Shown here piece by piece: positions 1,274 to 64,000 of a stretch of DNA of 64,000 nt. The notes beneath the pieces are model-generated. The model was not told the origin of the DNA, ran no database searches, and saw only the letters and a program-made list of their open reading frames with translations. The position numbers and the translations under genes are program-made. Position 1 is the stretch's first letter. Each line of letters begins with the position of its first letter. Source of the DNA: Ostreococcus lucimarinus (taxonomy: Eukaryota); the NCBI GenBank assembly GCA_000092065.1, contig CP000583.1; one strand, written 5' to 3'.

Positions 1274-2899
1274 CTACAATACACTCGATGACGGCGCGAA
1301 TTCGCCGGCGCTCGCTCGCAAACTAGACGCCCGCGCCATGGCGAGCTCGGGCGTGCGAATCGGCGACAGACCCTTCGCCTTAATCTTCGACGGCTTGAGC
1401 GACGATTCGTACTGCACGTCGTTCGTCTGCGGCGTGACTGACTCGACGTCTTCTTCGCTCTCGTTCCCTGGCAACAACGGCTCGTAGTGCGCCGCCTCTT
1501 CGTCGTCGTCAGAATCACTCTCACTCTCGTTCTCGCCGTTGTCATCGCGAGGCGACATCTCTTGTCGAGGCAACCACACGTGCACGCGTCCAGCGAGCCA
1601 CGCCACGCGCCACGCGTTCAGCGCCAACTTCGCCGTCCAAATGCCCTTCAGACTTACCAGCGGGCGATTCGCGAGATACAGCGTCGGCAAGAAAACCAAA
1701 CCAACCCCGGTGGCCATGACTTCGCGAACGAACGAGAAACTGTGCGTGGCGTAGATGAATCCATCATACACGAAAACCGCCGCGTTGATCGGCTGCGCGA
1801 GCACGAGCACTCGCCACACCCCCGAGCCGAGCAGCGCCTCTTTCGTTTTCGCGTCGCGCGTGAACACGCTCGGAATCGCCGATTCGCCCGCCACGAGCGC
1901 GGCGCTGAAGACGAATCCGGTGACGACGCCCCACGCGACGAGCGTGTGCGACAATCGCACGAGCTCATCCTTTCGACCGGCGCCGAACAAACGCGACCCG
2001 ATCACCGTCGCGCACGTCGCGAATCCGTCGACGACGTACGAGCACACCATCCACAGCGACACGACGATGTGGTGCGCCGCCAATCCGCTCGGCTCCAAGT
2101 TCCTCGCGGCGACGACCACCGCGACGAAGAACGAGCTCTGCAACAAAATCGACCGCGCCACCATGCTCGCGCCGTTCGCCAAAAATCCAAACGTCTCCGC
2201 CGCGCCCAACCGTCTCGCCGACGTCGCTCGCGGCGCGAGCGGCTCGTCCCAACCTCGCGGCGTCGTCGTCGACACCAACCACCACCCCAATCCCGCCTGC
2301 GCGACGCTCACCGCGAACGTTCCGACGCCGATCCACCGCATCTTCGCCGCGTCTCCCCTCCCCAGCCCCAGCGCCGCGAGCGTCGCCGCCGCGTCCGCCG
2401 CCGCCTTTCCCGCCGACCACCGCGTCGCCGTCTCCACCCTGCCGATCCCGCACACCGTCCCCATCGCGCTCTCGAACGCCATCGCGAACGGCGTCGCGCC
2501 CAGGACCCACGGGAACATCTCGTTCGCCAGCGCCGCGACTTCCGGCGTCAACCGAAACGCGCCTCGCGCGCTCGGCGTCAGCGTCGCCGCGCACGCGATC
2601 GCGCTCGCCGTCCCGCTCACCAGCGCCAGCGCCATCGCCAGCGCCGCGCACATCCGCGCGCGCTCGCGATCGTTCGCGCCCGCGCGCGCGCCGACCTCGG
2701 CCGCGACGCCGTCGGCGAGAAAGTTGAGCGCGCCCGCGCTCAGCCGCGCCACCGCGCGCGCGACGCCGAACGCCGCCTGCGCGTCGCTCGACGCGCGCGC
2801 GCCCACGAGCGCGAGCTGGAGCGCCTGCGACAGCGGCGCGGCGACGCATCGCGCCGCGCCGGCGAGCGAGACGCGCGCGAGGACGCCGCGGCGCGGCAT
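1274..2899 (-). CDS. MATE (multidrug and toxic compound extrusion) family efflux transporter.
   Basis: The product is a ~540 aa polytopic membrane protein with MATE-like conserved blocks (…FGAGRKDEL…, …VFVYDGFIYATHSFSFV…). The ATG at 2899 is the first M after the Arg-rich, low-complexity upstream part of the long ORF 1274..3823. The acidic C-terminal tail is typical of eukaryotic MATEs. Confidence 0.7.
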   Translation of the reverse strand: MPRRGVLARVSLAGAARCVAAPLSQALQLALVGARASSDAQAAFGVARAVARLSAGALNFLADGVAAEVGARAGANDRERARMCAALAMALALVSGTASAIACAATLTPSARGAFRLTPEVAALANEMFPWVLGATPFAMAFESAMGTVCGIGRVETATRWSAGKAAADAAATLAALGLGRGDAAKMRWIGVGTFAVSVAQAGLGWWLVSTTTPRGWDEPLAPRATSARRLGAAETFGFLANGASMVARSILLQSSFFVAVVVAARNLEPSGLAAHHIVVSLWMVCSYVVDGFATCATVIGSRLFGAGRKDELVRLSHTLVAWGVVTGFVFSAALVAGESAIPSVFTRDAKTKEALLGSGVWRVLVLAQPINAAVFVYDGFIYATHSFSFVREVMATGVGLVFLPTLYLANRPLVSLKGIWTAKLALNAWRVAWLAGRVHVWLPRQEMSPRDDNGENESESDSDDDEEAAHYEPLLPGNESEEDVESVTPQTNDVQYESSLKPSKIKAKGLSPIRTPELAMARASSLRASAGEFAPSSSVL

Positions 2900-2936
2900 C
2901 GCGCGTCGGCGTCTGACCGTCACACCGCGACGCGGA

Positions 2937-4189
2937 TGACGGCGCGCGCGCGACGCGACGCGCGCGACGACGACGGCGACGCGCGCGACGACGCGCGCCG
3001 GACGCGTTCGAGCGACGACGCGCGCCGGATGCGCGTCGCGAGGCGAAGACTGGACGAAGGCGCGCCCGCGGCTCGAACGACGGCGGCGCGCGTCGACGCC
3101 GCGCGGCGCGCGATCGGACGCGCGATCGCGCGCGCGCTCGATCAATTGGGCGCGTTCGAGCGCGGCGCGACGAAGCTCGTCGGGTTCGGCGCGGGATGGC
3201 TCGCGGTGCGCGCGCCGGCGGCGGCGTGCGGGTGCGCGGCGGGCGCGTACGGCGGCGGTTTGGCGGCGTGCGGCGCGTGCGCGCTGGGCGCGGCTTGGGT
3301 CGCGGCGCGAGGACCGATCAGGGCGGTGAAAGATTTGGTGATCGGGATGGCGCTGAGCGTGTTGCCGGCGGCGCTGACGGCGACGAGCGCGCTGAGCGCG
3401 TGGAGACGGGGGGCGACGACGCTGGACGGCGAGCGGACGAACGCGATGAGCGCGGACGCGGCGAGCGCGGACGCGATATCGGTCGTGGGACTGGCGCGCG
3501 CGCACTTTAGGTTTGATTTGATGGGAGAGCATCACGCCGCGCTGCCCGCGGAGGATGAGAAATACATGTACAAGGCTGGGGCGGAGGCGACGGGGACGGT
3601 TTGCGCGGTGCCGGTGACGTACGACGGATGGACGCGCGCGAACGCGGTGCCGCTGTGGTACGTGTGCGATAACGATTGGGCGGGGCACAGGGATTGCACC
3701 CAGGCGTACGAAGGCGATTACGACGCGCGCCGCGGGTGGTACGGGCTGCGTCCTTTGCGCAAGTGCTTGCGAGCGCCGCTCGACGCGCTCGACGCCGGCG
3801 CGACGGAGCTGCATTTTTTGCATTTGGATTTTCAGCAGTCATTCGAGCGCAAACACGCGCTGAGCGAGGGGGCGCTGATGCGTGCGAGCGTGCAGCACCA
3901 AGTCTCCATCGATCTCTCCGCGCCGCGCGTGTACTGGAACCCGATTCAAGAGCCGTGTTGCGCCGCGCTCGCCAAGGAGGACGACGCGCTCCTGACGGCG
4001 GTGACCGTCCTGAGCGTCTTACCGCTCGCGTACCTCGTCTATCGCGACATCTTGGAGGCGTGGAAAAAGAGGATCAACGTGGAGAGCACGAAGCGGGCGT
4101 TTTACACGCGCGCTGAGCTTTTGGGCGCGTCCCGGTTGAGCGGGGCGTCCCGCCGAGCGCCGCACTCGTCGACTCGTCGGCGGTCATGA
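2937..4189 (+). CDS. Hypothetical protein. The N-terminal half is hydrophobic and the C-terminal half is conserved-looking but unassigned (LWYVCDNDWAGHRDCTQAY…).
   Basis: This is the 3' portion of the long + ORF 1487..4189. From the ATG at 2937 the codon third positions are strongly G/C and use the same NNG preferences as neighbouring bona fide genes. I recognise no domain. Confidence 0.45.
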
Positions 4190-12458: not shown

Positions 12459-14474
12459 ATGCCCGACCGATGGCCTCCCGCGCTGGAGATCCCGCGCGCG
12501 CTCAATGACGACCCCGCGTTCCACGCCGCGGCGCCGGACGCGTACGTGTGCGCGCTCACGCGCGAGGTGATGAAGAATCCCGCCGTCGTCGGACGCACGG
12601 GACGGAGCTACGAGCGCGCGGCGATCGACGCGTGGATCGCGCGCCACGGGCGCGATCCCGTCGCGACGAGCGTCAAAGTGACGCGCGAGGACGCCGCGCC
12701 GAATCGCGCGGTGCGGGCGTCGATCGAGCGGTACGTCGCGCGCGAGACGGCGAGGCGCGCGCGAGGGGCGGCGACGGCGAACGAAGGCGCGAACGAAGAC
12801 GCGAACGAAGACGCGAACGAAGACGCGAACGAGACGGACGACGAGGAAGACGATGAGGAAGACGAGACGAGCGATGGGGAAGGAGAGGCGAAGGAATCGG
12901 GCGGGACGGCGGTGAACTGGCGCGCGAGAGTGGAGACGGCGACGCGCGAGACGGCGACGCGCGAGACGGCGGAGACGAGAAAGGTGCGCAGATATTTGTT
13001 TCCGCGGCGACGCGTCGACGTCGTGAGGGCTGAGTTTCTCGTGACGTCAGTGACGTATCCACAGCGCGCCGATGAGCCCGACGGGAAGTTTTTCAGGTTT
13101 AAAATGGAAGACTTGACGAAAATCGTCGGCGATTGGGCGGGCGAGGATTTGGAGGCGTACAAAAAGGGTGAGGTTAAAGACGGTCAAGGCGCGTCGTTCG
13201 TCGTGAGACGCACGGATAAGGATGGGAACGTTAAAGGTACGAAAACAGTGTGCGTCTGGGGTGGGCCGAAAGGACAAGGTGTTGGACGCTGGAACCCGGC
13301 GGTTCGCGCAAAGGCGGGCGACTGGGCTGTCGGCGATAAAGTCACTTTGATGAATTACAGCGAAGCGCTCGCGATGCCACCGCGGACGTTTCCACTATCT
13401 ATCAAAGAGTACAAAATACACTCACCCACGGGCTGGAACCTCCCCGCGAACGCTATCCGTTTCGGCCAAGCTGGTTTGATCGGGCACTGGTGGAAGACGC
13501 TCGACGTAGAGTTCGTGTTGGATGACTCAAACGTAGGTACGCGAGTGTACGGCGTTCACACCGATGCGCCGTATGAAACTCTCAAATTTGAAGTCCAAGC
13601 TCTTCGCTCTGACGGACGGTGGCACAAAGTTCGCTTAAGCTCGAAGAAAGTACCTTGGGGACGCACGTTTAAGCGTCCGGTTGATGACGCTACGTCCATT
13701 CGCGTGACGTGGCCAGATACTGATTTGCACAAGTTACCTCTCAGTGCTCACCGTAGTGGCGAAGGTTTACACGCCAACATCGTCGGTTCTACGACTGATA
13801 TCGACATATTATCCGTGGTTCACCCCACGGCAGGGGCTGACGGTAAATATTTCCGCTTCGACCCCGCAGCCATGGCGGCGGCGCGCGGCGGTGCGCGTGA
13901 CTGGGAAGGGACGTATACTTGCTATGTGCTTCGCACTGGCGTCCGAGATAAAGTGACGTTCAAACATGGACCGCTCGGCAAATCTGCCTCGAAGACTTTA
14001 TATCGACACGTCGAGTCCGACGATGAAGATACGAAGCCAAAAAAGTCCTTTTTAGCTACCGTCGCGGGCAAAGGGCGCAAGTTTATTCGCTTCGGCAAGT
14101 CACGCAGCGAAATAGAGGCGGGAGAGAACGACGACGTCTCCGAAGATGATGACGCGGAGACTGGCGAAGAAGTTGTCGCCGACGACGCTGACACGAATGA
14201 AGACGTTGAGAAAGAAGAGCATGAACTCGTGCAAGCACTCGGTATTGGATGCTATTCCACCGGCGCTCGCCCGGGAGACTGGCGCGTCGGCGACGTCATC
14301 TTGCTCAAGCGCTACGTCCTTCAGCCCGGCGTCGTGGAGCCCTCGCGACCAGCCGCATCAACACGCAAAGATGGATACGAAGAGGCGTCAAAAACAGACG
14401 AGTGGTTCCGGGTCTACCACCCGGACCCGATCGAACCCAATCAAGTCGACGAAGTCGTCATTCCCGACACCTAG
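12459..14474 (+). CDS. U-box domain protein (putative E3 ubiquitin ligase) with an acidic linker and a C-terminal region of repeated, unassigned ~100-aa modules.
   Basis: The N-terminal U-box reads AYVCALTREVMKNPAVVGRTGRSYERAAIDAWIARHGRDPVATSVKV…PNRAVRASIERYV. Repeated motifs follow (…KFFRFKMEDL…GDWAVGDKVTL…, …KYFRFDPAAM…, …GDWRVGDVILL…). Codon usage is typical of the other genes. Confidence 0.7.
   Translation: MPDRWPPALEIPRALNDDPAFHAAAPDAYVCALTREVMKNPAVVGRTGRSYERAAIDAWIARHGRDPVATSVKVTREDAAPNRAVRASIERYVARETARRARGAATANEGANEDANEDANEDANETDDEEDDEEDETSDGEGEAKESGGTAVNWRARVETATRETATRETAETRKVRRYLFPRRRVDVVRAEFLVTSVTYPQRADEPDGKFFRFKMEDLTKIVGDWAGEDLEAYKKGEVKDGQGASFVVRRTDKDGNVKGTKTVCVWGGPKGQGVGRWNPAVRAKAGDWAVGDKVTLMNYSEALAMPPRTFPLSIKEYKIHSPTGWNLPANAIRFGQAGLIGHWWKTLDVEFVLDDSNVGTRVYGVHTDAPYETLKFEVQALRSDGRWHKVRLSSKKVPWGRTFKRPVDDATSIRVTWPDTDLHKLPLSAHRSGEGLHANIVGSTTDIDILSVVHPTAGADGKYFRFDPAAMAAARGGARDWEGTYTCYVLRTGVRDKVTFKHGPLGKSASKTLYRHVESDDEDTKPKKSFLATVAGKGRKFIRFGKSRSEIEAGENDDVSEDDDAETGEEVVADDADTNEDVEKEEHELVQALGIGCYSTGARPGDWRVGDVILLKRYVLQPGVVEPSRPAASTRKDGYEEASKTDEWFRVYHPDPIEPNQVDEVVIPDT
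12789..12833 (+). repeat. 12-bp coding microsatellite (GCGAACGAAGAC)x3.7, encoding (ANED)n, inside the U-box gene.
   Basis: The repeat is read directly from the sequence. Confidence 0.9.
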
Positions 14475-14516
14475 ACAAAAATGCGAGCAGTTAACAATAG
14501 AATCAAAATTTTCCTA

Positions 14517-15920
14517 CTAAGCCTTGCCTTCAAAACGCGGCAAGGCGCCACTTAAGAATACCTTCCCCGTGATGCCGAGCGTTCCCGCCATGAAGAACGC
14601 GACGTCTCGAAACAAGCTCACCGGACCCGCTCCCGTTTCCAACGCGCCGATGAATCGGCTACTTTGCATGATCGCCGCCGTGGGCGGTTTCCTAATGCCC
14701 TCATACGCACGGAGTGCCTGTTTCACCGTGTCATATTCAGCGCCAACTTTCGATAGTTCGCTTGCGATACAAAGTGCGTCTTGCATGGCTTGATTCGCGC
14801 CTTGCCCGAGGAAAGGAGGCATAGCGTGGCATGCGTCGCCGACGAGGCTAATCGTTCCGGCGTCATCGCTCCACGAATCCAATACGTCGTGGTAATGCAC
14901 ACCGACGTCAAAGAATCGATCGCATGCCTCGGCTACGTCAATAGCACTTTGGGGCATACCCTTTTCACGCATCAAAGCCACGGCTTCTTCCTTTGCTGCG
15001 GCTTTTGCGCGCCACGCCGTGTTTTCGTCGCGCTTGGTTTTGTCTTGGACGCACAGCGCGATGTTGTGCTGCTTGTTCTGCGCCCCTTCGCCGCCGCCTG
15101 TGAACACGAGCATGTACGCGCCGTCTGCGAACCATTGATGGGCGATGTTCATTTCACTCGCCGCTCGTGCGGTCGAGCCCGCAGGTGTGCATCCGAAAAC
15201 GATGCGAATACCGCTGTACTTTGGCGGCGATTCGCCGCCATCCACCGCCTCGCGCGCACGACTATCGATGCCATCCGCGCCGATGACTAAATCAAACACC
15301 TCTCGATCGCCATTCTCAAACTCGATCTCTGCATTGCTTCCGCGCGATCGCACTGCTTTCACCCCGCGATCAAACATCAAACACTCGCTCGGCAGCGCGT
15401 CCGCCATCGCGCGTTGCAAATCTGCCCGCTGCACCGTCCCCGCCAACACCCTCCCACTTTCGCTCACCAACGCCTCGCATCCGTCGTCGTCGCCGCGTAT
15501 CATATCGTGTACTCTCACCTCAAACAATCCGAATCCTCCATTCGCTCGTCGCGCTTTGACACCGAGCAAATCATTCGCCAACGCGTCGTAGGTCGCCTCG
15601 AGCCCGAGCTCGCAGAGCACTCTCGCGCCGCCATTCAAATTGAACCCTCCGCCGACGTTCGGCTTGATCGCCTCCGTTCTTTCGAACACGCGCACTCCAT
15701 CGATGCCTTTCGCGCGAAGCGCCAGCGCGGTGGCTAACCCGCTCGGCCCACCGCCGATGACGGCGACTTTCTTGTCGCTCCAAAAGCTCGAGCCGTCGGG
15801 TCGAGGCGGAAGAGCGAAGCGTTTTACGAGCGCACGGCGCGCGTTCGAAGTCGCGCGCGACGGCGAGAACGAGAACGCGCGTTTGCACGACGTCGACGCG
15901 CACGCGCGCTCGGCGAACAT
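14517..15920 (-). CDS. FAD-dependent aromatic-ring/zeaxanthin-epoxidase-like monooxygenase (UbiH/ZEP/salicylate-hydroxylase class), with an N-terminal targeting-like extension.
   Basis: The product carries a GxGxxG dinucleotide fold (VAVIGGGPSGLATALAL), a DG motif (DLVIGADGIDSRAR) and a GD motif (LVGDACHAMPPFLGQGANQAMQDA). Confidence 0.8.
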   Translation of the reverse strand: MFAERACASTSCKRAFSFSPSRATSNARRALVKRFALPPRPDGSSFWSDKKVAVIGGGPSGLATALALRAKGIDGVRVFERTEAIKPNVGGGFNLNGGARVLCELGLEATYDALANDLLGVKARRANGGFGLFEVRVHDMIRGDDDGCEALVSESGRVLAGTVQRADLQRAMADALPSECLMFDRGVKAVRSRGSNAEIEFENGDREVFDLVIGADGIDSRAREAVDGGESPPKYSGIRIVFGCTPAGSTARAASEMNIAHQWFADGAYMLVFTGGGEGAQNKQHNIALCVQDKTKRDENTAWRAKAAAKEEAVALMREKGMPQSAIDVAEACDRFFDVGVHYHDVLDSWSDDAGTISLVGDACHAMPPFLGQGANQAMQDALCIASELSKVGAEYDTVKQALRAYEGIRKPPTAAIMQSSRFIGALETGAGPVSLFRDVAFFMAGTLGITGKVFLSGALPRFEGKA

Positions 15921-16031
15921 CGCGCGGACGTGTGACGAGTTTTAACGAGAGATGTGACTTTCGTTGCAACGGGACGCCTTCGCGGCGAGGCTCGGCAATA
16001 ATTTTATAATGTACTGTGGCGCCACATCGGC

Positions 16032-17057
16032 TCAATCGTGGTGCGCTTTGGCGCCATTTGGTTCGTCTTCATCGTCGCTCCTCACGTCCTCCGCGTTTCC
16101 GGTCGCTAGCACCTTGTGCACGACGTTGACGATGAGTTTAAACCAATACACCTGCAAGCCGAGAATGACGTAGAGCAACGCGACGCACAGCCAGTACGGG
16201 ATCGATGGGCTAAAATACCGCCTCGCCTCGAAGTGCACGGAGTACACCACGTACGGATACATCACCAGTCGCATGACGAAAAATATGACGAGAAAAATAC
16301 CGAACAACACGTCGGCGGCGAGTTGATATTTCTTATCCCCGCGCGCGTCCCCGACGTACTTCGCGCACTTCGCCGCGTGCAACGGTACGTCCGCCGGGTC
16401 CAGCACGAGCATGATCACCGCCCCCACGCGCGTCCAACCGACGATGTACGACACCCAAATCACTCCGATCGTCGCAAAATGATGCAATTGCATCTCCCAA
16501 AAATCTTTCCGCTTATGTTCGAGAAACACGTTGGCCGCCCCCGCGACGTATCGCGCCCCGTACGCCAGATAGTACGCCCGCAGCGCGCTCTCCGTCGCCC
16601 GCGTCTTCACCGGTGCCCCGATCCACCACTCGCTCGACGGCCAGAACCATCGCTGTCCAGGCACTATCGCGCACCCGATGATCGTGAACGTCCCGTACGT
16701 CGCCATCTCGAGCGCGCTCTGCGCGAACTTTTCCATCTTTCGTCGTCGCGCCTTGCGCGCGCCGCCGACGCCGCGCGCGCCGTAACCCATCAGTCGTCCC
16801 GCTAGCGGTTCGACGACGGCGCGCCGTAACAACCAGTTGAACGCGAACATGATTATCGCGTAGATGAGCGTCACGCGCGCGTCCAGCGCGGCGTCGGGCG
16901 CGCGCACGCGCGACGCGACGGCGCGTGGCGTCGCGTGTTCACCGGCGCGCAATTTAAATCCGAATTGCGCCGCCAGCGCGCCGACGTCGTCGCTCACGAC
17001 GCGCGCGGCGTGGCGCCACGTCGAGGATGACGTCGCCGACGCGCGCGAGGCGAACAT
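16032..17057 (-). CDS. TLC-domain ceramide synthase (LAG1/longevity-assurance homologue).
   Basis: The Lag1p motif …QLHHFATIGVIWVSYIVGWTRVGAVIMLVLDPADVPLHAAKCAKY… is present in a multi-TM protein with an acidic C-terminus. The start is set at the ATG at 17057 (MFASRAS…), since the upstream part of ORF 16032..17525 is Arg-rich low complexity. Confidence 0.75.
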   Translation of the reverse strand: MFASRASATSSSTWRHAARVVSDDVGALAAQFGFKLRAGEHATPRAVASRVRAPDAALDARVTLIYAIIMFAFNWLLRRAVVEPLAGRLMGYGARGVGGARKARRRKMEKFAQSALEMATYGTFTIIGCAIVPGQRWFWPSSEWWIGAPVKTRATESALRAYYLAYGARYVAGAANVFLEHKRKDFWEMQLHHFATIGVIWVSYIVGWTRVGAVIMLVLDPADVPLHAAKCAKYVGDARGDKKYQLAADVLFGIFLVIFFVMRLVMYPYVVYSVHFEARRYFSPSIPYWLCVALLYVILGLQVYWFKLIVNVVHKVLATGNAEDVRSDDEDEPNGAKAHHD

Positions 17058-37476: not shown

Positions 37477-40400
37477 CTACGCGACGATGTCGCCGGGCAA
37501 GCCGAGCTTTTCGACGAGCTTGGGGACGACGGCGCCGTCGTCTTTGTCCACCTCGCCGCGAAGATCGGCGAGTTTGACGCCGGAAGCTTTCAATAACGCG
37601 GGCATTTTGTCGGTGTCGTCGCCGGCGAGCGCTTGCACGCGGGCGAGAACGTGAGCGAAGATGGTGAGGGCGAAACCTTCGGCTAAGATGTACCCGGGGT
37701 CTTCCCCCTCCGGCGTGGCTTTACGAAGGGCATCGGCGAGGGAGGCGAGCGTGCAAGAGCCATCGATAACTGGTCCAGCGAGAGAGGCGGCGATGTGGTC
37801 ACCAGCCTTGGGCAAGTCGCACATGACATCTTCGATGTTGTTGAAGAGCGGCGCAAAACCTTCAATCAACTGAGCGCCAGACATCGGGCCGTCAGAGGCG
37901 GCGAGCGCGCGAACGAGCCCGTACGCAGCCTCCCAGTCCATGTCGCGACGCTCAAAGCTCGTCGTCAAGAAGTATTCGATGAACGCAACGATGCGTCGCG
38001 GGTCCCACGTTGCGATGACCTTAACGGCTTCGCTGGTGTCCTTATCGTCATAAAAGTACTCCGTCGTCTTCTTGCGCTCAGCAATGAAAGCTGCGTCGTC
38101 GACCATGGCCTTCTCCTCCGTCGCCACCTTTGGCACAGGTACCGCCGCAGGCTTAGACTCAGCCGCTGAAAGTGTGCCTCGCGGCTGCGGAATGCTCGAT
38201 CGAGCGTCCATCTCGCGTGCGCCGCCGCCGCCTCTGACATCACCTCCCCCACGCTCGCGCTCGTCGCGCACGCCACTACCACCCGCACCACGTCGATCGC
38301 CACCGCCGAATGCACCTCGCGATTCGGTGCGTTGGAATCCGCCTGATCGATCGTCGCCACCTCGTGGCGCGCCACGGCTCGGGGGACGATCAAAGTCGCC
38401 GCCTCGGCGACTGTCGCTTCGCGGCATGGCACCAAATGAACCAGTGCGCTCGGGGCGACCGCCGGCACGGCGCGTTTGCTCCATGGCTGCGCGTTGTGCG
38501 TCGCGGTGAACGTCTTCAATCTTCTTCGGGCCTTCTTCCTTGCGACGCTCGCGCCACCCCTTGGCGCGAGTGTCCATGACGTCTTGCAACATGAATCGAT
38601 GACGAGAAGACATCTCTTCAGATTTGCTCAACACTTCCATGCGGCGGAAGTACGCATCCATGTACGCCTTGGCTTTTTGGTGATCAAGTTGACCGCCAAC
38701 AGTAGTCATGAGCTTACACAAAGCCTCCACGTCTTCCTCGTTCGGAGTCTTTTCGCCCTCGCCTAGAAGCTTCATGATGCACGTATGCATAATGCGTTCG
38801 GTGAGCATTGACTTTTTGAATAATTCACCGATGAAACGAATGTTACCGAGCATGCGTCTGCGCGCCTGGAGAAGTCTGTCCTCTCTCTTCAGTTGCTTGC
38901 GTCGCTCTTCGAGCGCAAGCTCCTCCTCAGTCTTCGGCTTTGGCGGTTCATCGATTTCACCATCCTCGAGCTCCTTCTCAGTCTCGGACTTTTCTTCACC
39001 CTCTTCACCCTCTTTCTTGTCGTCGTCTTCATCGTCACCCGCTTCAGCCTTGGCGATGGCTTTGTCGCCAGATTCGAACTCTTCTTGGCACTTGTTAAGA
39101 AGTACGCGCTTGAACGTGATAGCTTGTTGTCCCTCCGGCGCAGCGGGATCTAAGAATTCTACGCCCTCGCTCAAGAAGCGATCAGAAAGCACGCGACACA
39201 ACTCGGCGTACAAAGAAGAGAAGGTGGGCTCTTGAAGCGCCTTTTCGAACAATTGTCCGATGAGTCCGACCAAAGTGATGGCTTCGGTGATGCCGACGTC
39301 GAGAAGCTTCTCGAGAAGCTTCTCAAAGTTATCAGGTGTAAGCTTGTTGAGAATCGCCTTGAACGAACGCTGACGTTTCTGTTCTTCATCGTCCACGGTA
39401 CCAATGACGTACTTGTTATCTGTCTTGTGCAACTTCGGGAGCTCGCCTGCTGGGATGCGATATTGCGACTGGTTGTATCCGCCGCCACCGCGACGATCGC
39501 CGCGACGACCACCTTCGCCCGCGGGCAACTGTCGATGCGCCCACTTATCATCTCCTTTTTTACCGTCGTAACCACCGCCACCGCGGCTTCCACCGCCTCG
39601 ACGACCGCCGCCACCGCCGCGACCGCCACCGAACGATTGCACTCCCGGCGGACAAATGAAACCAGGCACGGGCCAGTAGTCAATGTCATCAGGAACGGTC
39701 CAATTCGCTGGCGTTGTTTGTGCGATCGGGGCATCGCGCATGGCTTTGAGCTCATCCACAGTGTACTTGCCATCGGCAGGTTTCGCCGCGAGGGTGAAGT
39801 CTGTAATCGGCGGCGGCAAGCGCGAGCGCTTCACGTCGGCGGCGGATCCAACGTCAGAGCCAGCGTCGGAGCCGATGCTCGAGACAGATTCCGACGTCGC
39901 GAGCTGCACCCCAGCCACGGCTTCGGCGAGCTCCTCGACGACTTTGTGCTTGGGCGGTTCGGGCGCCTTGGGCGCTTCCTCTTGCTTGGGAGGCTGCGGC
40001 TTGGGCGCTTCGGGAGCCTTGCGCAAAATGTCCGCCGCCGTCGGCGCCACGGGTTTCACCGGCGCCGGCGCGGGTGCCGGCACTTCCGCGGCTTTCGGTG
40101 CGACCGGTTCGGGCGCGGGCGCGGGCGCGGGCGGCGCCGCGGGCTTGGCCGCCATCGCCGCAAAGTTGATCGGCGGCGGCACCGCCGGCGCGGACGCGGC
40201 CGGCGCGACTGGCGCCGCCGGCGCCGCCGGCGCCGGCGATGCGACACCCGCAGGCGCCGCCGCTGCGACAGCAGCGGGCGACGCGCTCGCCGCGGGAGGC
40301 GTCGACGACACCGGCTTCTCAACCTTGACCTCTTGCTTCGTCTTCGGGTTAACAATCTTGATCGCCTTGCTCGCCACCTTTGTCGGCGGCGTCGACGGCG

Positions 40401-40827
40401 TCGACGGCGGTTTGATCCCCGGCGGCTTCGCGTACGCCGGCATTCCCATCGGTGGCATTCCCATCATCATCCCCGGATGAAACGGCGCTCCTCCCTGCAC
40501 GAACATCTGCCCCGGAGCCATCCCCGGCGCGCCCGGCTTCCCGCCCGGCGGCATCATCCCCATCATCGGTCCTCCCGGCATCGGTCGACCCCCCGGCGGC
40601 ATCCCCGGCATCCCCATTCCCGGTCCTCCCACCCCGGGCTTTCCTCCCCCGCCCTTCGCCATGTTCATCGTCCCGAACATGAACTGTTGCGGCGGCATGC
40701 CGCTCCCCGCCGCGCTCGCGATGACCTTCTTCTCCTCCTCCGTTCCCTTCGCCCCCCCCCCGCTCGCGTTCCCGCGCGGTTGCGGCACTCCCGGCGCCTG
40801 ATTACGATTCGGCATCGCGCCCGACAT
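37477..40827 (-). CDS. EIF4G: Eukaryotic translation initiation factor 4G (eIF4G).
   Basis: The N-terminus is Pro/Gly/Ala-rich with a 4E-binding-like KYTVDELKAM. A MIF4G domain follows (…FKAILNKLTPDNFEKLLEKLLDVGI…LIGQLFEKALQEPTFSSLYAELC…), and there is a C-terminal MA3 domain (…VKVIATWDPRRIVAFIEYFLTTSFERRDMDWEAAYGLV…). Confidence 0.85.
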   Translation of the reverse strand: MSGAMPNRNQAPGVPQPRGNASGGGAKGTEEEKKVIASAAGSGMPPQQFMFGTMNMAKGGGGKPGVGGPGMGMPGMPPGGRPMPGGPMMGMMPPGGKPGAPGMAPGQMFVQGGAPFHPGMMMGMPPMGMPAYAKPPGIKPPSTPSTPPTKVASKAIKIVNPKTKQEVKVEKPVSSTPPAASASPAAVAAAAPAGVASPAPAAPAAPVAPAASAPAVPPPINFAAMAAKPAAPPAPAPAPEPVAPKAAEVPAPAPAPVKPVAPTAADILRKAPEAPKPQPPKQEEAPKAPEPPKHKVVEELAEAVAGVQLATSESVSSIGSDAGSDVGSAADVKRSRLPPPITDFTLAAKPADGKYTVDELKAMRDAPIAQTTPANWTVPDDIDYWPVPGFICPPGVQSFGGGRGGGGGRRGGGSRGGGGYDGKKGDDKWAHRQLPAGEGGRRGDRRGGGGYNQSQYRIPAGELPKLHKTDNKYVIGTVDDEEQKRQRSFKAILNKLTPDNFEKLLEKLLDVGITEAITLVGLIGQLFEKALQEPTFSSLYAELCRVLSDRFLSEGVEFLDPAAPEGQQAITFKRVLLNKCQEEFESGDKAIAKAEAGDDEDDDKKEGEEGEEKSETEKELEDGEIDEPPKPKTEEELALEERRKQLKREDRLLQARRRMLGNIRFIGELFKKSMLTERIMHTCIMKLLGEGEKTPNEEDVEALCKLMTTVGGQLDHQKAKAYMDAYFRRMEVLSKSEEMSSRHRFMLQDVMDTRAKGWRERRKEEGPKKIEDVHRDAQRAAMEQTRRAGGRPERTGSFGAMPRSDSRRGGDFDRPPSRGAPRGGDDRSGGFQRTESRGAFGGGDRRGAGGSGVRDERERGGGDVRGGGGAREMDARSSIPQPRGTLSAAESKPAAVPVPKVATEEKAMVDDAAFIAERKKTTEYFYDDKDTSEAVKVIATWDPRRIVAFIEYFLTTSFERRDMDWEAAYGLVRALAASDGPMSGAQLIEGFAPLFNNIEDVMCDLPKAGDHIAASLAGPVIDGSCTLASLADALRKATPEGEDPGYILAEGFALTIFAHVLARVQALAGDDTDKMPALLKASGVKLADLRGEVDKDDGAVVPKLVEKLGLPGDIVA

Positions 40828-41363
40828 CTCTCGAGTCGTCCCTCGCGTCTCCGCGCCCTCCGCGCGCGTCGCGCGCGCCGATCGATCGCCGACGCTCGCC
40901 TCGCCGCCGCCGATCGACGCGCCGCGCGCCGTCGCTCGCCGTCGCTCGCGGTCGCTCGCGTCCGCCGAGTCGTCGCGCGCTCGGATCGTCGTCGACCGAT
41001 CGGCGCTCGCGTCGAAGTCGGACGTGCGCGAGACGCGCCGTCGTTCTGCCGTCGCCGCGCCGCGCGCGCGTCGCCTCGTCGTCGGGCGAGGTCAAAACGC
41101 TCGGTGATTAGGGTCACGCGCGCACATGGCCTCGCGCGCGTCGAGACTACGGCGTCGCGCGTCCTCGTGCGTTTATCTCGATCGACGCGCGCCGTCGATC
41201 GCGGTCGCGCGATCGATCGACGCCTCGAGGGTCGACGCGCGCGCGCGATCGAGGTTCGATCGCGGGTTCGATCGACGCGGGCGCGCGCGGGGCGTCGCGC
41301 GGCGCGGCGCGGCGCGGCGCGGCGCGCGAGACGACGACGCGCGACGACGCGAGGCGACGCGGG

Positions 41364-44300
41364 ATGGACGCGCGCGCGACGTCGAGGGCGTCGGCGTGGA
41401 CGCGCGCGCGCGAGACGCGCGCGAGGGGCGAGCGACGCGCGGCGAGCGGCGACGGCGCGCGCGCGCGGGCGAACGCGCGGCGGCGAGCGACGCGCGCGAC
41501 GCGCGCGCGAGGGGCGGAGCACGCGCTGGACGCGCTGTACCTGGGCGGACGCGCCGAGCGGGACGCGCGCGAGCTCGTGCTGCGGATCGGGGAGAGCGAG
41601 GTGAGGCTGGAGACTGGGAAGATTGGGTTGCAGGCGAACGGCGCGGTGTTCGCGAGCGAGGGGGAGACGGTGCTGTACAACACGGCGTGCGCGTCGAGGG
41701 AGTGCACGGGAGATGGGTCGTTCGTGCCGCTGACGGTGAATTACGCGGAGCGGTTCTCGGCGGCGGGGAGGACGTCGGGAGGGTATAAGAAGCGAGACGG
41801 GGGGTTAAGAGAAAACGAGACGCTCAAGGCGCGATTGGTCGATCGGCCGATACGACCGATGATGTACAAGGGATGGGGATACGAAACGCAGGTTTTGCAG
41901 TGGTTGATGAGTTTTGACGCCGAGCGATCGACGGATGCGCTGGCGATCACGGCGGCGTCGGCGGCGTTGGCGGTGAGCGACATTCCGCTGAAGAAGCCCG
42001 TCGTGGGCGTTCGAGTGGGTCTGATGCCTGGCTCGGATGAACCGGTGGTGAATCCGACGTCGGAACAAATGAAACAATCGAGATTGGACTTGGTGCTCGC
42101 CGGCACGGACGAGGCGGTGCTCATGATTGAGGGCTTTTGCGACTTTTTGACCACGGATGAAATGTTGCGAGCGATTGAAAAGGGCCAAGAGGCGGTGGCC
42201 AAGGCGTGCAAGGAAATTGACGCTTGGGCCGCAACTGTCGCGCCGCAGAAGATGATGCAAAAACTCATCGTGCAGCCCGAGGGCGTGGACGAGGCTGTCG
42301 CTGCGCTCGTGGAGGATGAATTGAAGCAAGCCATCGTCGTTCCGATCAAGCAAGAGCGAGGGGCGATGATTGGCGCCGCCCGCGAACGCGCAGTGGAAGC
42401 TCTTCAAGATGAATTCCAGGTACGTCAGTGGTTGCGCATACGCTGTCTCGCGCGAATCGGCGCTATTTCTCGCGCGAAACCTCGATAAGTCCCGCGCTCT
42501 ACCGAATAGTCGCAGCCGTTTCTCTCGAGAACTTGTTGGTTGCGGCTCAACTGCGAGCGCGTAAAGAAACGTGAATGCTTCGAACGGGCGCCCAGCCCAC
42601 CTTGGTGTCGCAGCCGAGTACTTCTGGATCCGCCCTTTGCACGCATTGCAAATTCTTGACGACGCCGCGAGCGAGACGGAACCGACTGACTTATGTACAC
42701 TTTTTCACACATCGTCGCAGGCTTCCGCCGTAATCAACGCGTGCGGCAAAATTGAGTCACGCGCCCTTCGCGACGTGATCCGAACCAAAGGTCGTCGTCA
42801 AGATGGTCGCACGACGTCGATGATTCGTCCGATTGCGTGCGAGGCGGGTATACTTCCTCGAACGCATGGCAGCTCGTTATTTACTCGCGGCGAAACGCAA
42901 GCCATCGGCGTCGCGACTCTCGGCGGTAGTCAGGATGCTCAGCGTCAAGACGACGTCGAAGCGGGCGAAGACAAACGCTTCATGTTGCACTACTTCTTCC
43001 CTCCGTCATCTGTTGGCGAAACTGGTCGCACGGGTGGCGCATCCCGACGTGAGATTGGTCACGGAAACTTGGCTGAACGCGCGCTCATGCCCATCCTTCC
43101 ATCGGAGGAGGACTTCCCTTTCGTGTGCAAACTGGAAAGCACAATCACGGAAAGTAACGGTTCCTCGTCAATGGCCACTGTCTGCGCGGGCACGCTCGCT
43201 TTGCTCGATGCCGGTGTTCCTATTAAAAGGTGCGGGTTTGGCGACATAGTCGTCGCGGAAATATTTTTCGAAAAAGCCAGGTCCTTAAGAACGCTCTTCG
43301 TTGCGCCGCTTTTGTGGTGTATGGAGAGAGATCGAGTCATAACTTGGCGACATTCAGATGCATAGCGACGCGTTTTGCGTCGTTTATTTGCTGCTGCGCT
43401 AGCGGTTGAACCGTGGAACGGACGATTCTTCAACTGTCCCGCGCTGTATTCAAACGCCGCGCGGAAATTTGTTTCTCGCGTCGCGCTCGCTCTCTCAGTC
43501 ACTGACCTTTTTTTATATTTTCAATTCGCAGGAAAGTCGCGGGTATCGCCATGGGCTTAATTTTGGGTTCTGAAGCCGCGGGCGGTGGCGATGAGCTCGA
43601 GCCCATCGTTCTCACCGATATCTTGGGCTCTGAAGACGCGCTCGGCGACATGGATTTTAAAGTTGCAGGCGACAAGGACGGTATCACCGCGTTCCAGATG
43701 GATATCAAGGTCGAAGGTATCACGATCGATGTCATGAAAACCGCGCTCGAAGAGGCGCAAAAGGGACTCGTGCACATCCTCGGCGAGATGGAAAAATGTG
43801 ACCCTGCGCCCGCGGGCGCCACGAGCAAGTATGCCCCGCGCATCGCTTCCATCGCGGTGCCGGAGAAGTACTTTGGCAAAGTCATCGGTAAGGGTGGGGA
43901 GACCATTCGTTCCATCATGGAGAAGACTGGTGCTGAGAACATCGATGTTAACAAAGAAAAGGAGATGGTGTTTGTCACTGGTGGCGCTGACGCGGACCTC
44001 GATGCGGCGATTCGGATGATCGAGGGCATGATTGTTGAACCAGAGGTGGGTAAAATTTATCGCGGCTGCGTCGTGAAGAAGGTTGTTGAATTCGGCTGCT
44101 TTGTTGAATATTTGCCGGGTCTCGAAGGACTTGTCCATATCAGTGAGCTCGACGTTTCACGCGTGCCAAACGTCTCCGACGTGACGTCCGAAGGAGCGGT
44201 GATGGATGTCAAGATTATCGCGGTCGATAATCGTGGTAAAACCAGTCTGAGTCGCAAAGAAGTTTTATTGGAGGAAAACCCAGAACTCGCCGCGGCCGGT

Positions 44301-59699: not shown

Positions 59700-62093
59700 A
59701 TGTGGACGCTCGAGTGCGCGACGGCGGCGGGCGCGCGCGATGCCGCGACGCTCGAGACGCTGAACGCGCACGTCGGGCGACAGGTGTGGACGCACGTCGA
59801 CGCGAACGAGGGAGACGACGAGGCGGGCGAGACGACGACGACGACGACGACGACGACGGGCGAGGGAAACGCCGCGCGACGACGGTGGACGAAGGAAGAG
59901 ATAAAGAGGGGACGCGCGGCGCAAGACGCGATGCGGGCGGCGTACGCGAAGACGCGGCACGAGCGTAAACACAGCGAAGACGCGTTTCTGCGCGCGCAGT
60001 ACGACGCGAGGCGAAGCGCGCGAGGCTTGGAGACGAAGACGAAGACGCCGAGCGCGATGGAGATTTCGAGAGGGGAAAAAGAGGGGAAGGGCGTCGACGG
60101 GGAGGTGGTGCGGCGAGCGATGCGAGCGGGGATCGAGTATTATCGAGGGATACAGGACGAGGACGGACACTGGGCGAGCGACTACGGCGGGCCGATGTTT
60201 TTGATGCCGGGGTTGATCATCGCGGCGAACGTCATGGAAAAATCGGAGGAGATCATCGGTGAAGCGCGAGGGCGGGAGATGCTGAGATACCTGGAGAATC
60301 ACTTGAACGAGGATGGGGGCGTTGGGTTGCACATCGAAGGTCACAGTACAATGTTTGGGACGGTTTTGACGTACGTGGCGATGCGGTTGCTCGGCAAGGC
60401 GGCGGATTCGCCCGAGTGCGCGAAAACGCGCAAGTGGATCATCGATCGCGGTGGCGCGACGCAGGTACCGTCGTGGGGGAAGTTTTGGCTCGCCGTGCTG
60501 GGGGTGTACGAGTGGCACGGGTTGAATCCGATTCCGCCCGAGTGTTGGTTGTTGCCGTATTGGCTCCCCATGCATCCGGGTCGATTCTGGTGCCACTGTC
60601 GCATGGTGTACTTGCCGATGAGTTACCTGTACGGCATCCGGGCCACGGGTAAACCGACGGCGTTGACCGCGGCGTTGAAATCGGAGTTATACGCCGAGGC
60701 ATCGTACGACTCAATCAACTGGAACACTGCGAGAAACGCGTGCGCGAAGGAGGACTTGTACTACCCGCACCCGTGGATTCAAGACGTCGTCTGGTCGACG
60801 CTCATGAAGGTCGAGCCGTTCTTGATGAATTCTCGCGTGCGCAAGGCGGCGTGCGAAGATGCGATGCGGCAGATTCATTACGAGGACGAAAACACGCGCT
60901 ACGTGGACATTGGGCCGGTGAATAAAGTCTTCAATATGTTGTCATGCTGGTTTGAAGATCCCGATTCAGAGGCGGTGAAGAAGCACATTCCACGCATCGC
61001 CGACTACCTCTGGGTCGCCGAGGACGGGATGAAAATGCAAGGATACAACGGAAGTCAGCTGTGGGACTGCGCGTTTTCCGTTCAAGCGATCGTAGCGACG
61101 GGTTTAGCGGACGAATATGGCGAGTGCTTACGTCGCGCGCACGACTACATCGAAAAGAGTCAAGTACGAGACGACTGCCCTGATGTCGAAAAGTGGTATC
61201 GTCACATTTCCAAGGGTGCGTGGCCGTTCAGCACACGCGATCACGGTTGGCCGATCTCCGATTGCTCCTCCGAAGGCTTGAAGGCGGCTTTGACGCTGGC
61301 GTCGATGGACGAGAAACTCGTCGGCGAGGCGATTCCCGTCGACCGACTCGCGGATTGCGTGAACGTCATCCTATCCTATCAAAATCGCGGCAGTGGTGGC
61401 TGGGCTACGTACGAAAATACTCGATCGACGAAGTGGGTCGAGCTCTTGAACCCAGCGGAGACGTTCGGGGACATCATGATCGATTACCCGTACGTTGAGT
61501 GCTCGAGCGCGAGTTTGCAGGCGCTGTGCAAATTTTCTGAGCGCTATCCGGACATTCGCGCCAAGGATATCGCGCATGCCAAGAAGACTGGCCGAAAGTT
61601 TTTGAAAAGTATTCAACGCGCCGATGGAAGCTGGTACGGATCGTGGGCGGTGTGCTTCACGTACGGAACGTGGTTCGGCGTCCTGGGATTGATCGCCACG
61701 GGGTCGACGTACGAGACGTGCCCATCGCTTCGTAAAGCAGTCGAGTTCTTGCTCTCGAAACAGCAAGAAAATGGTGGATGGAGCGAGAGCTATTTATCGT
61801 GCGAGAAAAAGGCGTACCACGAGCTTCGCGACAAGGATGGTAAGCCGAAGCCGCACTTGGTAAACACGGGATGGGCGATGCTTGCGCTCATCGCCAGCGG
61901 TCAACAAAACCGCGACGCGACGCCATTACATCGCGCCGCACGATGCATGCTCTCACAACAATATGAGAACGGCGATTTCCCGCAGCAAAGCATCATGGGT
62001 GTCTTCAACGCCAACTGCATGATTTCCTACAGTTGCTACCGAAGCATTTTCACACTCTGGGCGCTCGGCGAGTACTGCAACAAAGTTCTGTAA
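59700..62093 (+). CDS. CAS1: Oxidosqualene cyclase, most likely cycloartenol synthase (sterol biosynthesis).
   Basis: The full-length 797 aa product begins with the N-terminal MWTLE…NAHVGRQVW (cf. the plant CAS MWKLK…NHVGRQ-W) and carries QW repeats (…QQENGGWSESY…, …RADGSWYGSW…). The catalytic-Asp motif is present as …WPISDCSSEGL… (a DCTAE variant). Confidence 0.9.
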   Translation: MWTLECATAAGARDAATLETLNAHVGRQVWTHVDANEGDDEAGETTTTTTTTTGEGNAARRRWTKEEIKRGRAAQDAMRAAYAKTRHERKHSEDAFLRAQYDARRSARGLETKTKTPSAMEISRGEKEGKGVDGEVVRRAMRAGIEYYRGIQDEDGHWASDYGGPMFLMPGLIIAANVMEKSEEIIGEARGREMLRYLENHLNEDGGVGLHIEGHSTMFGTVLTYVAMRLLGKAADSPECAKTRKWIIDRGGATQVPSWGKFWLAVLGVYEWHGLNPIPPECWLLPYWLPMHPGRFWCHCRMVYLPMSYLYGIRATGKPTALTAALKSELYAEASYDSINWNTARNACAKEDLYYPHPWIQDVVWSTLMKVEPFLMNSRVRKAACEDAMRQIHYEDENTRYVDIGPVNKVFNMLSCWFEDPDSEAVKKHIPRIADYLWVAEDGMKMQGYNGSQLWDCAFSVQAIVATGLADEYGECLRRAHDYIEKSQVRDDCPDVEKWYRHISKGAWPFSTRDHGWPISDCSSEGLKAALTLASMDEKLVGEAIPVDRLADCVNVILSYQNRGSGGWATYENTRSTKWVELLNPAETFGDIMIDYPYVECSSASLQALCKFSERYPDIRAKDIAHAKKTGRKFLKSIQRADGSWYGSWAVCFTYGTWFGVLGLIATGSTYETCPSLRKAVEFLLSKQQENGGWSESYLSCEKKAYHELRDKDGKPKPHLVNTGWAMLALIASGQQNRDATPLHRAARCMLSQQYENGDFPQQSIMGVFNANCMISYSCYRSIFTLWALGEYCNKVL

Positions 62094-62278: not shown

Positions 62279-62881
62279 CTACAGGTACCACAACACGCGC
62301 TTATCCGCCTTCAAAACCCCGTACACCGCCAACACGTCGTCCCCGCTCTCCATCTCCAGCGTCACGTTTGCGCTCACGTACTTCCCCTTCGAGCTCGGCC
62401 TCGCCGTCACGTTCTCCGGATGTATGTACCTCCCACCCAGCGCCTCCGAAATCATCTCTCGAACGCTATCGACGAACGTTCCGTCGTCCAAGCCGATGGC
62501 TTGAAACTTTCGCGCGCACGGGTACTCGTTGACGCGCGCGTCCAGCGCCTTCCACTTCGCGTCATTCTCATCGTCCTCGTTCGACGCCATCACCGTGGGC
62601 GTCCGCGCCTCGCTCGGCGTCGAGCGAGCATCGCGCGTTTTACGCAGCTCGCGCATGGTGTCGAGGAGCGAGGCATCGAGCGGCGTCGCGCGCTCTGGGT
62701 CGTCACCGCTCGAGGCGTCACCGCTCGCGGGGGAAGACGACGCGAATGCGACGCGCGCGCGCTGCGACGCGGGACGTGCGATGCGCCGGGTGACGTAGGT
62801 GTGTATACACTGCGCGCGCGCGAGGAGCATGGCGCTAGCGATGGCGAGAGGCGCGAAGTGCGGAGGTTTCAACGTTTGCAC
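62279..62881 (-). CDS. DUF493 (YbeD/UPF0250-like) small protein with an N-terminal targeting-like extension.
   Basis: The conserved DUF493 core is in the C-terminal ~90 aa (…YPCARKFQAIGLDDGTFVDSVREMISEAL…GKYVSANVTLEMESGDDVLAVYGVL…). Confidence 0.6.
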   Translation of the reverse strand: MQTLKPPHFAPLAIASAMLLARAQCIHTYVTRRIARPASQRARVAFASSSPASGDASSGDDPERATPLDASLLDTMRELRKTRDARSTPSEARTPTVMASNEDDENDAKWKALDARVNEYPCARKFQAIGLDDGTFVDSVREMISEALGGRYIHPENVTARPSSKGKYVSANVTLEMESGDDVLAVYGVLKADKRVLWYL

Positions 62882-62933
62882 GCTTACAGGCGAGAAGGGC
62901 TCGCCGTCGCGCGACGAGTAATGTTACACATGA

Positions 62934-64000
62934 TTAGCGTTTGGCGCGCGCGGCGCGTGATTTTGCCTTAGTTTTGTTCGCCTCGCGACTCGCCGCGGCG
63001 GTAGGGCGGAGCTCACCGCGCGCGAGCTCAGTTTTAACCTCGAGCGAGCCGCGGGAGATGCCGTGCGCTCGGCCATTCGCATCCGGTAATTTCGAGAGCC
63101 AACTCGCGAGTTCGCTCGAGGACGTGCGCCCGTTCGCTAGGTCGCGATAACGCGATAGAAGCTCGGGGACCACACTCGCGGGCTCGTCCACGAGCTCGAC
63201 GCGGAAGTGGCAAATGCCGGCGTCGATGAATGTTTTCAGGTACTCCGCGCCCGTTTGCGCCTGAGCGTTGAAGACGGTGTTTCGGCACCCCATGTCTGCG
63301 AGGACAAGATGGTCGGCACCGCGGTCGTCTCGCAAGTGCAAGTGCTTGCTCTCGCATGGATGGCCACAATCTTTGTACGAGTTTCCGTCGGACATGAATC
63401 GACAGAACACGCAGTGTTCGGTATGGAAGATTGGCAAATGCTGATGGACGATGACTTCGAGCTTGGACGCGCCCGCGGGACCGAGGGCGACTGCGAGCGC
63501 GCGTTGCTGCTCGGCGTTCAAGTCATGCGTTGGCGTCAAGCGCTCGAGTCCTGACCTCAGAAAGACGTCCGCACCGATTGCGTTGGCGGCGTTTAATGAA
63601 AAGTCACCACGAAGCGGTGGAATGACGACATCGGCGTCCGAGCGCCCGAGTTCGAGCAGTGTCTGTAATAAACCCGCCGATCGCACGAGCAGGGCGTCGG
63701 CGCCTAGATTGAGATAGTATCGCCACAGTTGCTCTTCTTCTGGCTTCAGCACGCGCGGCGTGGCGACCACGGCTGTTTTCCCCGCGGCTTGAACGAGACG
63801 AACCGTTTTTTGCAATCCGTGAACTTCTAAAAAGTCCAAAGCGATTTCGTCCACGCCATCGACAGTCACCGCAGCTTCGGCTTGCGCGCGCGTGCGACAG
63901 AGCACAGAGATGGACGGCAACCCGCTCGTAGGATTCACGCGCGGTTCTTTGCTCGCTCCTTTATCGCGTTGATCGATGATATCGCCCCACCATGCGTTGC
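62934..64000 (-). CDS. Peptidase-U32-family protein (YegQ/RlhA/UbiU-like). The 5' end runs off the window (the frame is open to position 64000).
   Basis: The U32 core has a conserved Cys cluster …IFHTEHCVFCRFMSDGNSYKDCGHPCE…; the surrounding sequence (…GADALLV…, …NTVFNAQAQ…) also looks U32-like. The listed ORF begins at a GTG, and the frame stays open upstream (…NAWWGDIIDQRDKGASKEPR…). Confidence 0.7.
   Translation of the reverse strand, partial: NAWWGDIIDQRDKGASKEPRVNPTSGLPSISVLCRTRAQAEAAVTVDGVDEIALDFLEVHGLQKTVRLVQAAGKTAVVATPRVLKPEEEQLWRYYLNLGADALLVRSAGLLQTLLELGRSDADVVIPPLRGDFSLNAANAIGADVFLRSGLERLTPTHDLNAEQQRALAVALGPAGASKLEVIVHQHLPIFHTEHCVFCRFMSDGNSYKDCGHPCESKHLHLRDDRGADHLVLADMGCRNTVFNAQAQTGAEYLKTFIDAGICHFRVELVDEPASVVPELLSRYRDLANGRTSSSELASWLSKLPDANGRAHGISRGSLEVKTELARGELRPTAAASREANKTKAKSRAARAKR

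Follow-up and report, generated by a model that had tools for sequence, protein, structure and literature searches.

A two-domain U32 protein of the RlhA family, probably organelle-targeted, in the nuclear genomes of Ostreococcus and other green algae

Why should the nuclear genome of a green alga carry a gene for a U32 protein, of a family whose members are described as almost all bacterial, with a smaller archaeal share (PMC10990095), and does anything tie it to the DUF493 gene standing beside it? The question is raised by positions 62,279 to 64,000 of a 64,000-nucleotide stretch of Ostreococcus lucimarinus DNA (contig CP000583.1 of assembly GCA_000092065.1; this whole stretch is the window of our analysis). 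An earlier note, made from the letters of the window, had read there a bacterial-type U32 Fe-S protein in eukaryotic nuclear DNA, in tandem with a DUF493 gene on the same strand; both frames and their Pfam matches were borne out, as was the algal nuclear genome as their setting. With rather better than even confidence, we read the U32 gene as encoding a two-domain RlhA-family protein that would be imported into an organelle and hydroxylate RNA there, with DUF493 an unrelated though syntenic neighbor.

The U32 gene and its subfamily

The U32 frame runs for 354 stop-free codons on the minus strand (62934-63998), ends in a TAA at 62934-62936 and is open at the window edge; this fragment matches Pfam Peptidase_U32 (PF01136) with E = 1.3e-12 and 47.9 bits against a cut-off of 22.4. 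The full gene was recovered from metagenome contigs that were reached by exact look-up of the adjoining cycloartenol synthase. One of these, L001, matches the window without a difference over 1801 bases (100% identity) and carries the whole U32 gene at 13235-16294 (minus strand). The full-length protein of 1019 amino acids (aa) comprises, in order, a presequence, a U32 domain (residues 162-388), DUF3656 (509-643) and a second U32 stretch, with Pfam E-values of 7.5e-90 for PF01136 and 3.5e-14 for PF12392 (DUF3656); the window portion is residues 666-1019, that is, the second, C-terminal U32 domain ('RlhA2'). In an AlphaFold model of the window fragment (pLDDT 84.6) this domain is predicted to fold as a U32 barrel, the best match among solved structures being the U32 protein Mk0906 (PDB 5D88), with generic TIM barrels next. 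Sequence searches of the PDB with the full protein and with the C-terminal domain returned no U32 structure, so that 5D88 came from the fold search only.

The presence of U32 and DUF3656 in one chain has been reported as unique to the RlhA subfamily, the synthase of 5-hydroxycytidine at position 2501 of 23S rRNA (ho5C2501), about half of whose members carry a second C-terminal U32 motif, RlhA2 (Kimura et al., PMC5727448). The algal protein has both Peptidase_U32 and DUF3656 and thus the RlhA architecture. Its residues 88-643 align colinearly with E. coli RlhA (E = 1e-57), and BLASTP of the algal N-terminal domain against the four E. coli paralogues puts RlhA first, at 196 bits and 42% identity, followed by TrhP (155 bits), UbiU (130 bits) and UbiV (29 bits). 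Scores of the whole protein against the NCBIfam equivalog models were all below cut-off (TrhP, 217.8 of 534; UbiU, 172.7 of 440; UbiV, 61.7 of 275). By these comparisons, the gene is a eukaryotic member of the known RlhA family; its product is probably organelle-targeted.

The same scores bear on the choice of substrate, since the protein might instead act on organellar tRNA as TrhP does, making 5-hydroxyuridine at position 34 (ho5U34) as the precursor of uridine 5-oxyacetic acid (cmo5U) or 5-methoxyuridine (mo5U), and leave rRNA alone. TrhP gave the top NCBIfam score and is, by its NCBIfam product name, likewise prephenate-dependent, and the RNA substrate of the algal protein is not readable from its sequence; however, that score lies far under the cut-off, and the alignment to E. 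coli RlhA is better than that to TrhP, longer, and spans DUF3656. We consider a TrhP-like role unlikely.

Cysteine conservation was taken from a 199-sequence alignment in which the homologues are 70 eukaryotic-type and 128 bacterial proteins. The N-terminal motif CX6CX15CX3C (C253, C260, C276, C280) is 100% conserved in the 198 homologues and aligns with C169, C176, C192 and C196 of E. coli RlhA. The Cys-rich segment of the C-terminal domain (Table 1) contains C861, C864, C876, C880 and C903 in full-length numbering, and of these C861, C876, C880 and C903 are 99-100% conserved across the eukaryotic-type and bacterial homologues. C861 aligns with E. coli C572, C876 with the essential C611 and C880 with C614, while C903, invariant among the homologues, has no E. 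coli RlhA counterpart. Formation of ho5C2501 in E. coli requires C169, C176 and C611 of RlhA, and also C580 (PMC5727448). The cluster read earlier as CVFC...DC...C is indeed present (C196, C199, C211 and C215 in fragment numbering), but its C199, the C864 of the full protein, is only partly conserved, being Cys in 74% of eukaryotic and 45% of bacterial homologues; the invariant set is instead fragment C196, C211, C215 and C238. A profile of the C-terminal domain aligned with UbiV (hhalign E = 2e-5) such that C861, C876 and C880 fall on three Cys of the UbiV segment CFTARSEDRPKDECETCC. As a match for UbiV's distant first Cys we weighed C699 and rejected it, its conservation in bacterial homologues reaching only 47%; because C903 is invariant, it is the better candidate for a fourth ligand.

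Table 1. Features of the U32-DUF493 locus, in window coordinates
Feature	Position	Strand	Basis or remark
3' part of RlhA-type U32 gene	62934..64000	-	open frame; Pfam PF01136; exact contig match
Cys-rich segment CVFCRFMSDGNSYKDCGHPC...ADMGC, C-terminal domain	63285..63413	-	translation and alignment; putative [4Fe-4S] ligand set
DUF493 (YbeD-like) gene	62279..62830	-	183 aa from first ATG, plus stop; Pfam PF04359
DUF493 domain proper, last 84 residues	62282..62533	-	translation; residues 117-200 of GTG-started open reading frame
Spacer, U32 stop to DUF493 ATG	62831..62933	.	103 bp

Presequence, distribution and origin

The algal U32 protein begins with an Arg/Ala-rich N-terminal extension of ~85 residues; the 87 residues before the conserved core include 22 Arg or Lys, 23 Ala and 10 Asp or Glu, the acidic residues being mostly distal. 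The median length of this extension is 83 residues in eukaryotes against 14 in bacteria, and its eukaryotic composition is rich in Arg, Ala, Ser and Thr. Organelle targeting, as anticipated in the earlier note, fits the full N-terminus, a presequence-like extension that has no bacterial counterpart. The plastid is the most likely predicted destination, because every lineage bearing the gene has plastids and because plants and algae make prephenate there.

Between the variable presequence and the U32 core lies a motif found only in eukaryotes, [RK][KR]NPxLY. Of the 70 eukaryote-clade sequences 41 have it, as do 5 of 6 long sister sequences; none of the 43 in the gammaproteobacterial-type clade does. 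In Ostreococcus it reads GARKGARYL, in the N-terminal region encoded at L001:16040-16294 (minus strand), outside the window. It could indicate where the mature protein begins, or serve in docking.

Full-length orthologues (~950-1100 aa, 46-80% identity) were found in many green algae (O. tauri, O. mediterraneus, Bathycoccus, Coccomyxa, Micractinium, Volvox, Pleodorina, several Chlamydomonas species, Ulva, a pedinophyte (Pedinophyceae), Picochlorum, Parachlorella and Chloropicon) and in one chlorarachniophyte (Bigelowiella), all of them plastid-bearing lineages; one diatom and one haptophyte transcriptome gave partial matches. No streptophyte was among the best 120 U32 matches. Orthologues are annotated in the nuclear genomes of O. 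tauri and Bathycoccus, that of O. tauri already as 'peptidase U32'.

In a neighbor-joining tree with bootstrap, the eukaryote-type sequences cluster weakly (55%) and join a clade of 870-890-aa proteins (100% support) that includes some from Chromatiaceae, Thiosocius, Halieaceae and other gammaproteobacterial sources. The group so joined is supported at 92% and leaves out Deinococcales, Chloroflexi, Planctomycetes and Acidobacteria; the nearest named bacteria among those sampled are gammaproteobacteria. Cyanobacteria were absent from the best matches, in a sampling that did not target them explicitly, and the contig scan looked for exact peptides, QCAQACRM and HCVFCRFM among them, so that their absence from that scan is not proof of real absence. 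A cyanobacterial (plastid-endosymbiont) origin, one of the options in the earlier note, is not indicated; because the sampling could not target cyanobacteria, lateral acquisition from a non-cyanobacterial source is suggested but not demonstrated.

Among the bacterial homologues, one genome (GCA_963852565.1; L012:6841-9404) carries its RlhA homologue as two overlapping open reading frames, the first encoding U32 (387 aa) and the second DUF3656 with U32 (467 aa), followed by a gene for a SpoU-type RNA methylase. Either a frameshift or a naturally two-subunit form of the protein may account for the split.

The DUF493 gene and its place beside the U32 gene

The open reading frame at 62279-62881 (minus strand), counted from an in-frame GTG, matches DUF493 with E = 8.8e-21 and 74.7 bits (cut-off 24). 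From that GTG the protein had been given 200 aa and its distance from the U32 gene as ~50 bp; however, the ATG at 62830 aligns with the Met of all orthologues ('ML(L)RA...') and gives 183 aa, a protein on record in identical form in many public assemblies. Because the gene starts at this ATG, not at the GTG, the real gap is 103 bp; gaps elsewhere in this locus range from 55 to 796 bp, and the orthologous spacers in other Ostreococcus loci from 98 to 134 bp. The protein has a presequence-like N-terminus, a conserved acidic/helical middle (DDPERA..LD..L) and a C-terminal DUF493 domain. With 32.7 against the YbeD equivalog cut-off of 86, it is a member of the family and not a YbeD equivalog. Its C-terminal 84 residues, including the PSSKG(K/N)Y core, align with E. 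coli YbeD (PDB 1RWU), the alignment over SSKG(K/N)Y being weak (E = 0.12), whereas the presequence and the conserved acidic/helical region of ~60 aa have no YbeD counterpart. The product is an independently translated, small ACT-like protein, probably organelle-targeted as well. That read-through or a small intron might join U32 and DUF493 into one protein was considered and rejected; the frames differ, and DUF493 orthologues have their own Met and presequence.

Several oddities attend this gene. Directly after the U32 stop, the spacer holds a 15-codon upstream open reading frame (ATG TGT AAC ... TAA; 62886-62933, minus strand), probably meaningless. In Bathycoccus (L098:11171-12013), the stop-to-stop DUF493 frame of 280 aa overlaps the U32 stop codon by 4 nucleotides, and the N-terminal region of its protein is long and rich in Ser. 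The 1031-aa U32 protein of O. tauri (XP_003077999.1 / CAL52739.1) is recorded under the family name of its DUF493 neighbor, 'Uncharacterised protein family UPF0250', which suggests carry-over of the name from an older merged gene model.

Might the pair form a functional module kept by selection, with DUF493 as an accessory or regulatory subunit, as UbiT is for UbiU and UbiV? The two genes lie on the same strand ~100 bp apart, both proteins have presequence-like N-termini, the O. tauri U32 record bears that DUF493 family name, and four Ostreococcus lineages keep the genes adjacent, as does Bathycoccus, whose DUF493 is down to ~50% identity. Four other Ostreococcus-type loci, and Bathycoccus as well, show the order U32, DUF493, convergent cycloartenol synthase. 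However, the flanking genes are also conserved in the longer loci, which keep the wider block ALO, SHMT, U32, DUF493, OSC, branching enzyme, hnRNP, RPL5; the adjacency of U32 and DUF493 is therefore uninformative beyond synteny, and a gap of 103 bp is ordinary for this genome.

Outside these two genera the pairing does not hold. In a Micromonas-like contig (L099; 2.58 Mb, GC 68%), whose U32 protein is 59% identical, DUF493 is still beside the cyclase, but U32 lies 6 kb from it on the other strand with four genes between (L099:1-11207), abutting an RPL5 / Myb / aminotransferase block that in Ostreococcus is on the far side of the cyclase, which indicates rearrangement. None of 80 bacterial RlhA loci had a DUF493 frame within 6 kb (home-made hidden Markov model, E <= 1), nor did two algal loci, GC-rich and with introns, have one within 8 kb; these last (P0085 and P0115) are fragmentary, and two further loci (P0076 and P0040) proved bacterial. 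E. coli ybeD adjoins lipB and dacA, is linked to lipB and lies far from rlhA. DUF493 genes of similar size also occur in land plants (~198 aa in cotton), yet, as noted above, streptophytes were missing from the best 120 U32 matches. A selected module is thus quite improbable, and the position of DUF493 beside U32 appears, from the loci compared, to be inherited gene order. The functional link proposed in the earlier note, the more unusual half of its reading, was not upheld: adjacency is kept in Ostreococcus and Bathycoccus and broken in a Micromonas-like relative, and close U32 orthologues are widespread and tree-like across Chlorophyta, which is essentially the outcome that the note had named as refuting its reading.

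The plus-strand neighbor at 59700-62093 is the cycloartenol synthase, without introns, and further neighbors encode a starch-branching enzyme, an hnRNP-like protein, RPL5, a Myb protein, SHMT and galactonolactone dehydrogenase, a eukaryotic gene set that identifies the window as nuclear DNA; the host is Mamiellales-like. Two 2-kb stretches of the window (2001-4000 and 40001-42000) reach 72.8% GC, against ~60% elsewhere in it.

Predicted function and comparison with known systems

As a two-domain RlhA, the algal protein would be made in the cytosol and imported, through its basic N-terminal extension, into an organelle, the plastid more probably than any other. Each of its U32 TIM-barrel domains would hold one [4Fe-4S] cluster by four conserved Cys, in the manner of a fused UbiU-UbiV, and the enzyme would hydroxylate C5 of a pyrimidine in organellar RNA independently of O2, with prephenate as the oxygen donor. 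If E. coli RlhA is a guide, the target would most likely be C2501 in the peptidyl-transferase centre of 23S rRNA, a universally conserved residue, which would be modified while the large subunit assembles. RlhA function depends on Fe-S assembly and on prephenate, and prephenate has been proposed as the oxygen donor for the whole family of U32 enzymes (PMC10990095).

Several points weigh against this reading. Identity to E. coli RlhA is only 29-42%, and placement in the RlhA family goes by architecture and by comparison with the E. coli paralogues. The essential C580 of E. coli RlhA falls in an alignment gap, with no aligned algal Cys, and in place of the algal second U32 barrel, complete at ~300 aa, E. 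coli RlhA has only a Cys-rich tail of ~150 aa. The presequence does not by itself discriminate plastid from mitochondrion. E. coli RlhA itself still awaits a direct in vitro demonstration of hydroxylase activity (PMC10990095); for eukaryotic RlhA, activity and organelle localization are predicted only, and our literature searches found no report of ho5C in chloroplast or mitochondrial rRNA and nothing relevant on U32 proteins in chloroplasts.

A further alternative takes the likeness to UbiU and UbiV at face value, making the protein a fused enzyme of O2-independent prenylquinone (ubiquinone or plastoquinone) hydroxylation that does not act on RNA. The N-terminal domain does match the UbiU model and the C-terminal domain the UbiV model, and the two-domain layout resembles the UbiU-UbiV heterodimer; with a UbiU-like N-terminal domain and a C-terminal domain aligned to UbiV, the chain looks like that pair in fused form. 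Yet both scores are far under the equivalog cut-offs, E. coli RlhA outscores UbiU in BLASTP of the N-terminal domain, the chain contains the reportedly RlhA-specific DUF3656 (PMC5727448), the gene table of the locus has no UbiT/SCP2 gene near the U32 gene, and the UbiUVT pathway is known in the literature from proteobacteria only (PMC10990095). Of the two functions put forward in the earlier note, then, RNA hydroxylation of the RlhA type is favored and anaerobic quinone synthesis disfavored, on the strength of DUF3656, the best match to RlhA among E. coli paralogues and the wide margin by which the UbiU, UbiV and TrhP cut-offs were missed; we regard the quinone reading as very improbable.

We give almost no credence to a genuine collagenase-type peptidase or a bacterial contaminant, readings for which there speak database names such as 'collagenase-like PrtC family protease' and the deposition of the adjoining 183-aa DUF493 protein as '[bacterium]' (MDA9599426.1), since the U32 family is now tied to Fe-S and prephenate-dependent hydroxylation (PMC10990095), the gene sits among typical eukaryotic genes with a GC content matching the window and has orthologues in the O. 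tauri and Bathycoccus nuclear annotations, the '[bacterium]' label is a binning error, and the adjoining cycloartenol synthase was found on 24 contigs examined, with U32 beside it in 4 of 4 inspected loci, one of them on a 966-kb contig, a synteny by which contamination is effectively refuted. The same label is on MDA9599427.1, a partial cycloartenol synthase; evidently an Ostreococcus contig was binned into a bacterial metagenome-assembled genome (MAG).

The algal gene is thus already in the databases as 'peptidase U32', uncharacterized and undiscussed in the U32 literature. A presequence-bearing RlhA orthologue throughout Chlorophyta leads to the prediction that algal organellar ribosomes carry ho5C at the peptidyl-transferase centre, by a prephenate-dependent chemistry in the same compartment that makes prephenate; genetically tractable algae (Chlamydomonas, Ostreococcus) would then offer a eukaryotic system for a poorly understood enzyme family. 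More tentatively, and with less than even confidence, we propose that green algae, and probably other plastid-bearing protists, form ho5C in the plastid 23S peptidyl-transferase centre by means of a nuclear two-domain RlhA, plastid prephenate and SUF-made Fe-S clusters, the gene having come from a gammaproteobacterium-like donor and not from the cyanobacterial endosymbiont, and having been lost in land plants. If true, this would be the first eukaryotic prephenate-dependent, O2-independent hydroxylation.

Among known systems, E. coli RlhA (YdcP) has U32 followed by DUF3656, as in the alga, and shares with it CX6CX15CX3C, including the essential C169 and C176, while its C572, C611 and C614 are matched in the algal C-terminal domain; in contrast to it, the algal protein has the extra presequence of ~85 aa and a basic C-terminal tail, and its gene is nuclear and eukaryotic. 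In Deinococcus radiodurans, ho5C is present along with an RlhA1-subfamily protein (PMC5727448). The bacterial two-domain RlhA homologues (Thiosocius teredinicola WP_078119509.1 and MAG proteins of Chromatiaceae, Halieaceae and Deinococcales) have the same U32-DUF3656-U32 layout, colinear with the alga from residue ~86 to ~986, and have all eight conserved Cys in common with it, at 49-52% identity for the gammaproteobacterial clade and 44-47% for the Deinococcales, whose MAG homologues are likewise colinear with it. The bacterial proteins, of 870-890 aa, have neither the N-terminal extension nor the RKNPxLY-type motif of eukaryotes. The UbiU-UbiV heterodimer offers the other comparison, with two U32 modules, each having a four-Cys [4Fe-4S] site, of which the algal N-terminal domain is the UbiU-like and the C-terminal domain the UbiV-like counterpart. 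In the alga, unlike UbiU-UbiV, both modules belong to a single chain, on either side of DUF3656; they score far under the equivalog cut-offs and have no UbiT partner, and the first two aligned Cys of the C-terminal domain are separated by 14 residues, against 12 in UbiV.

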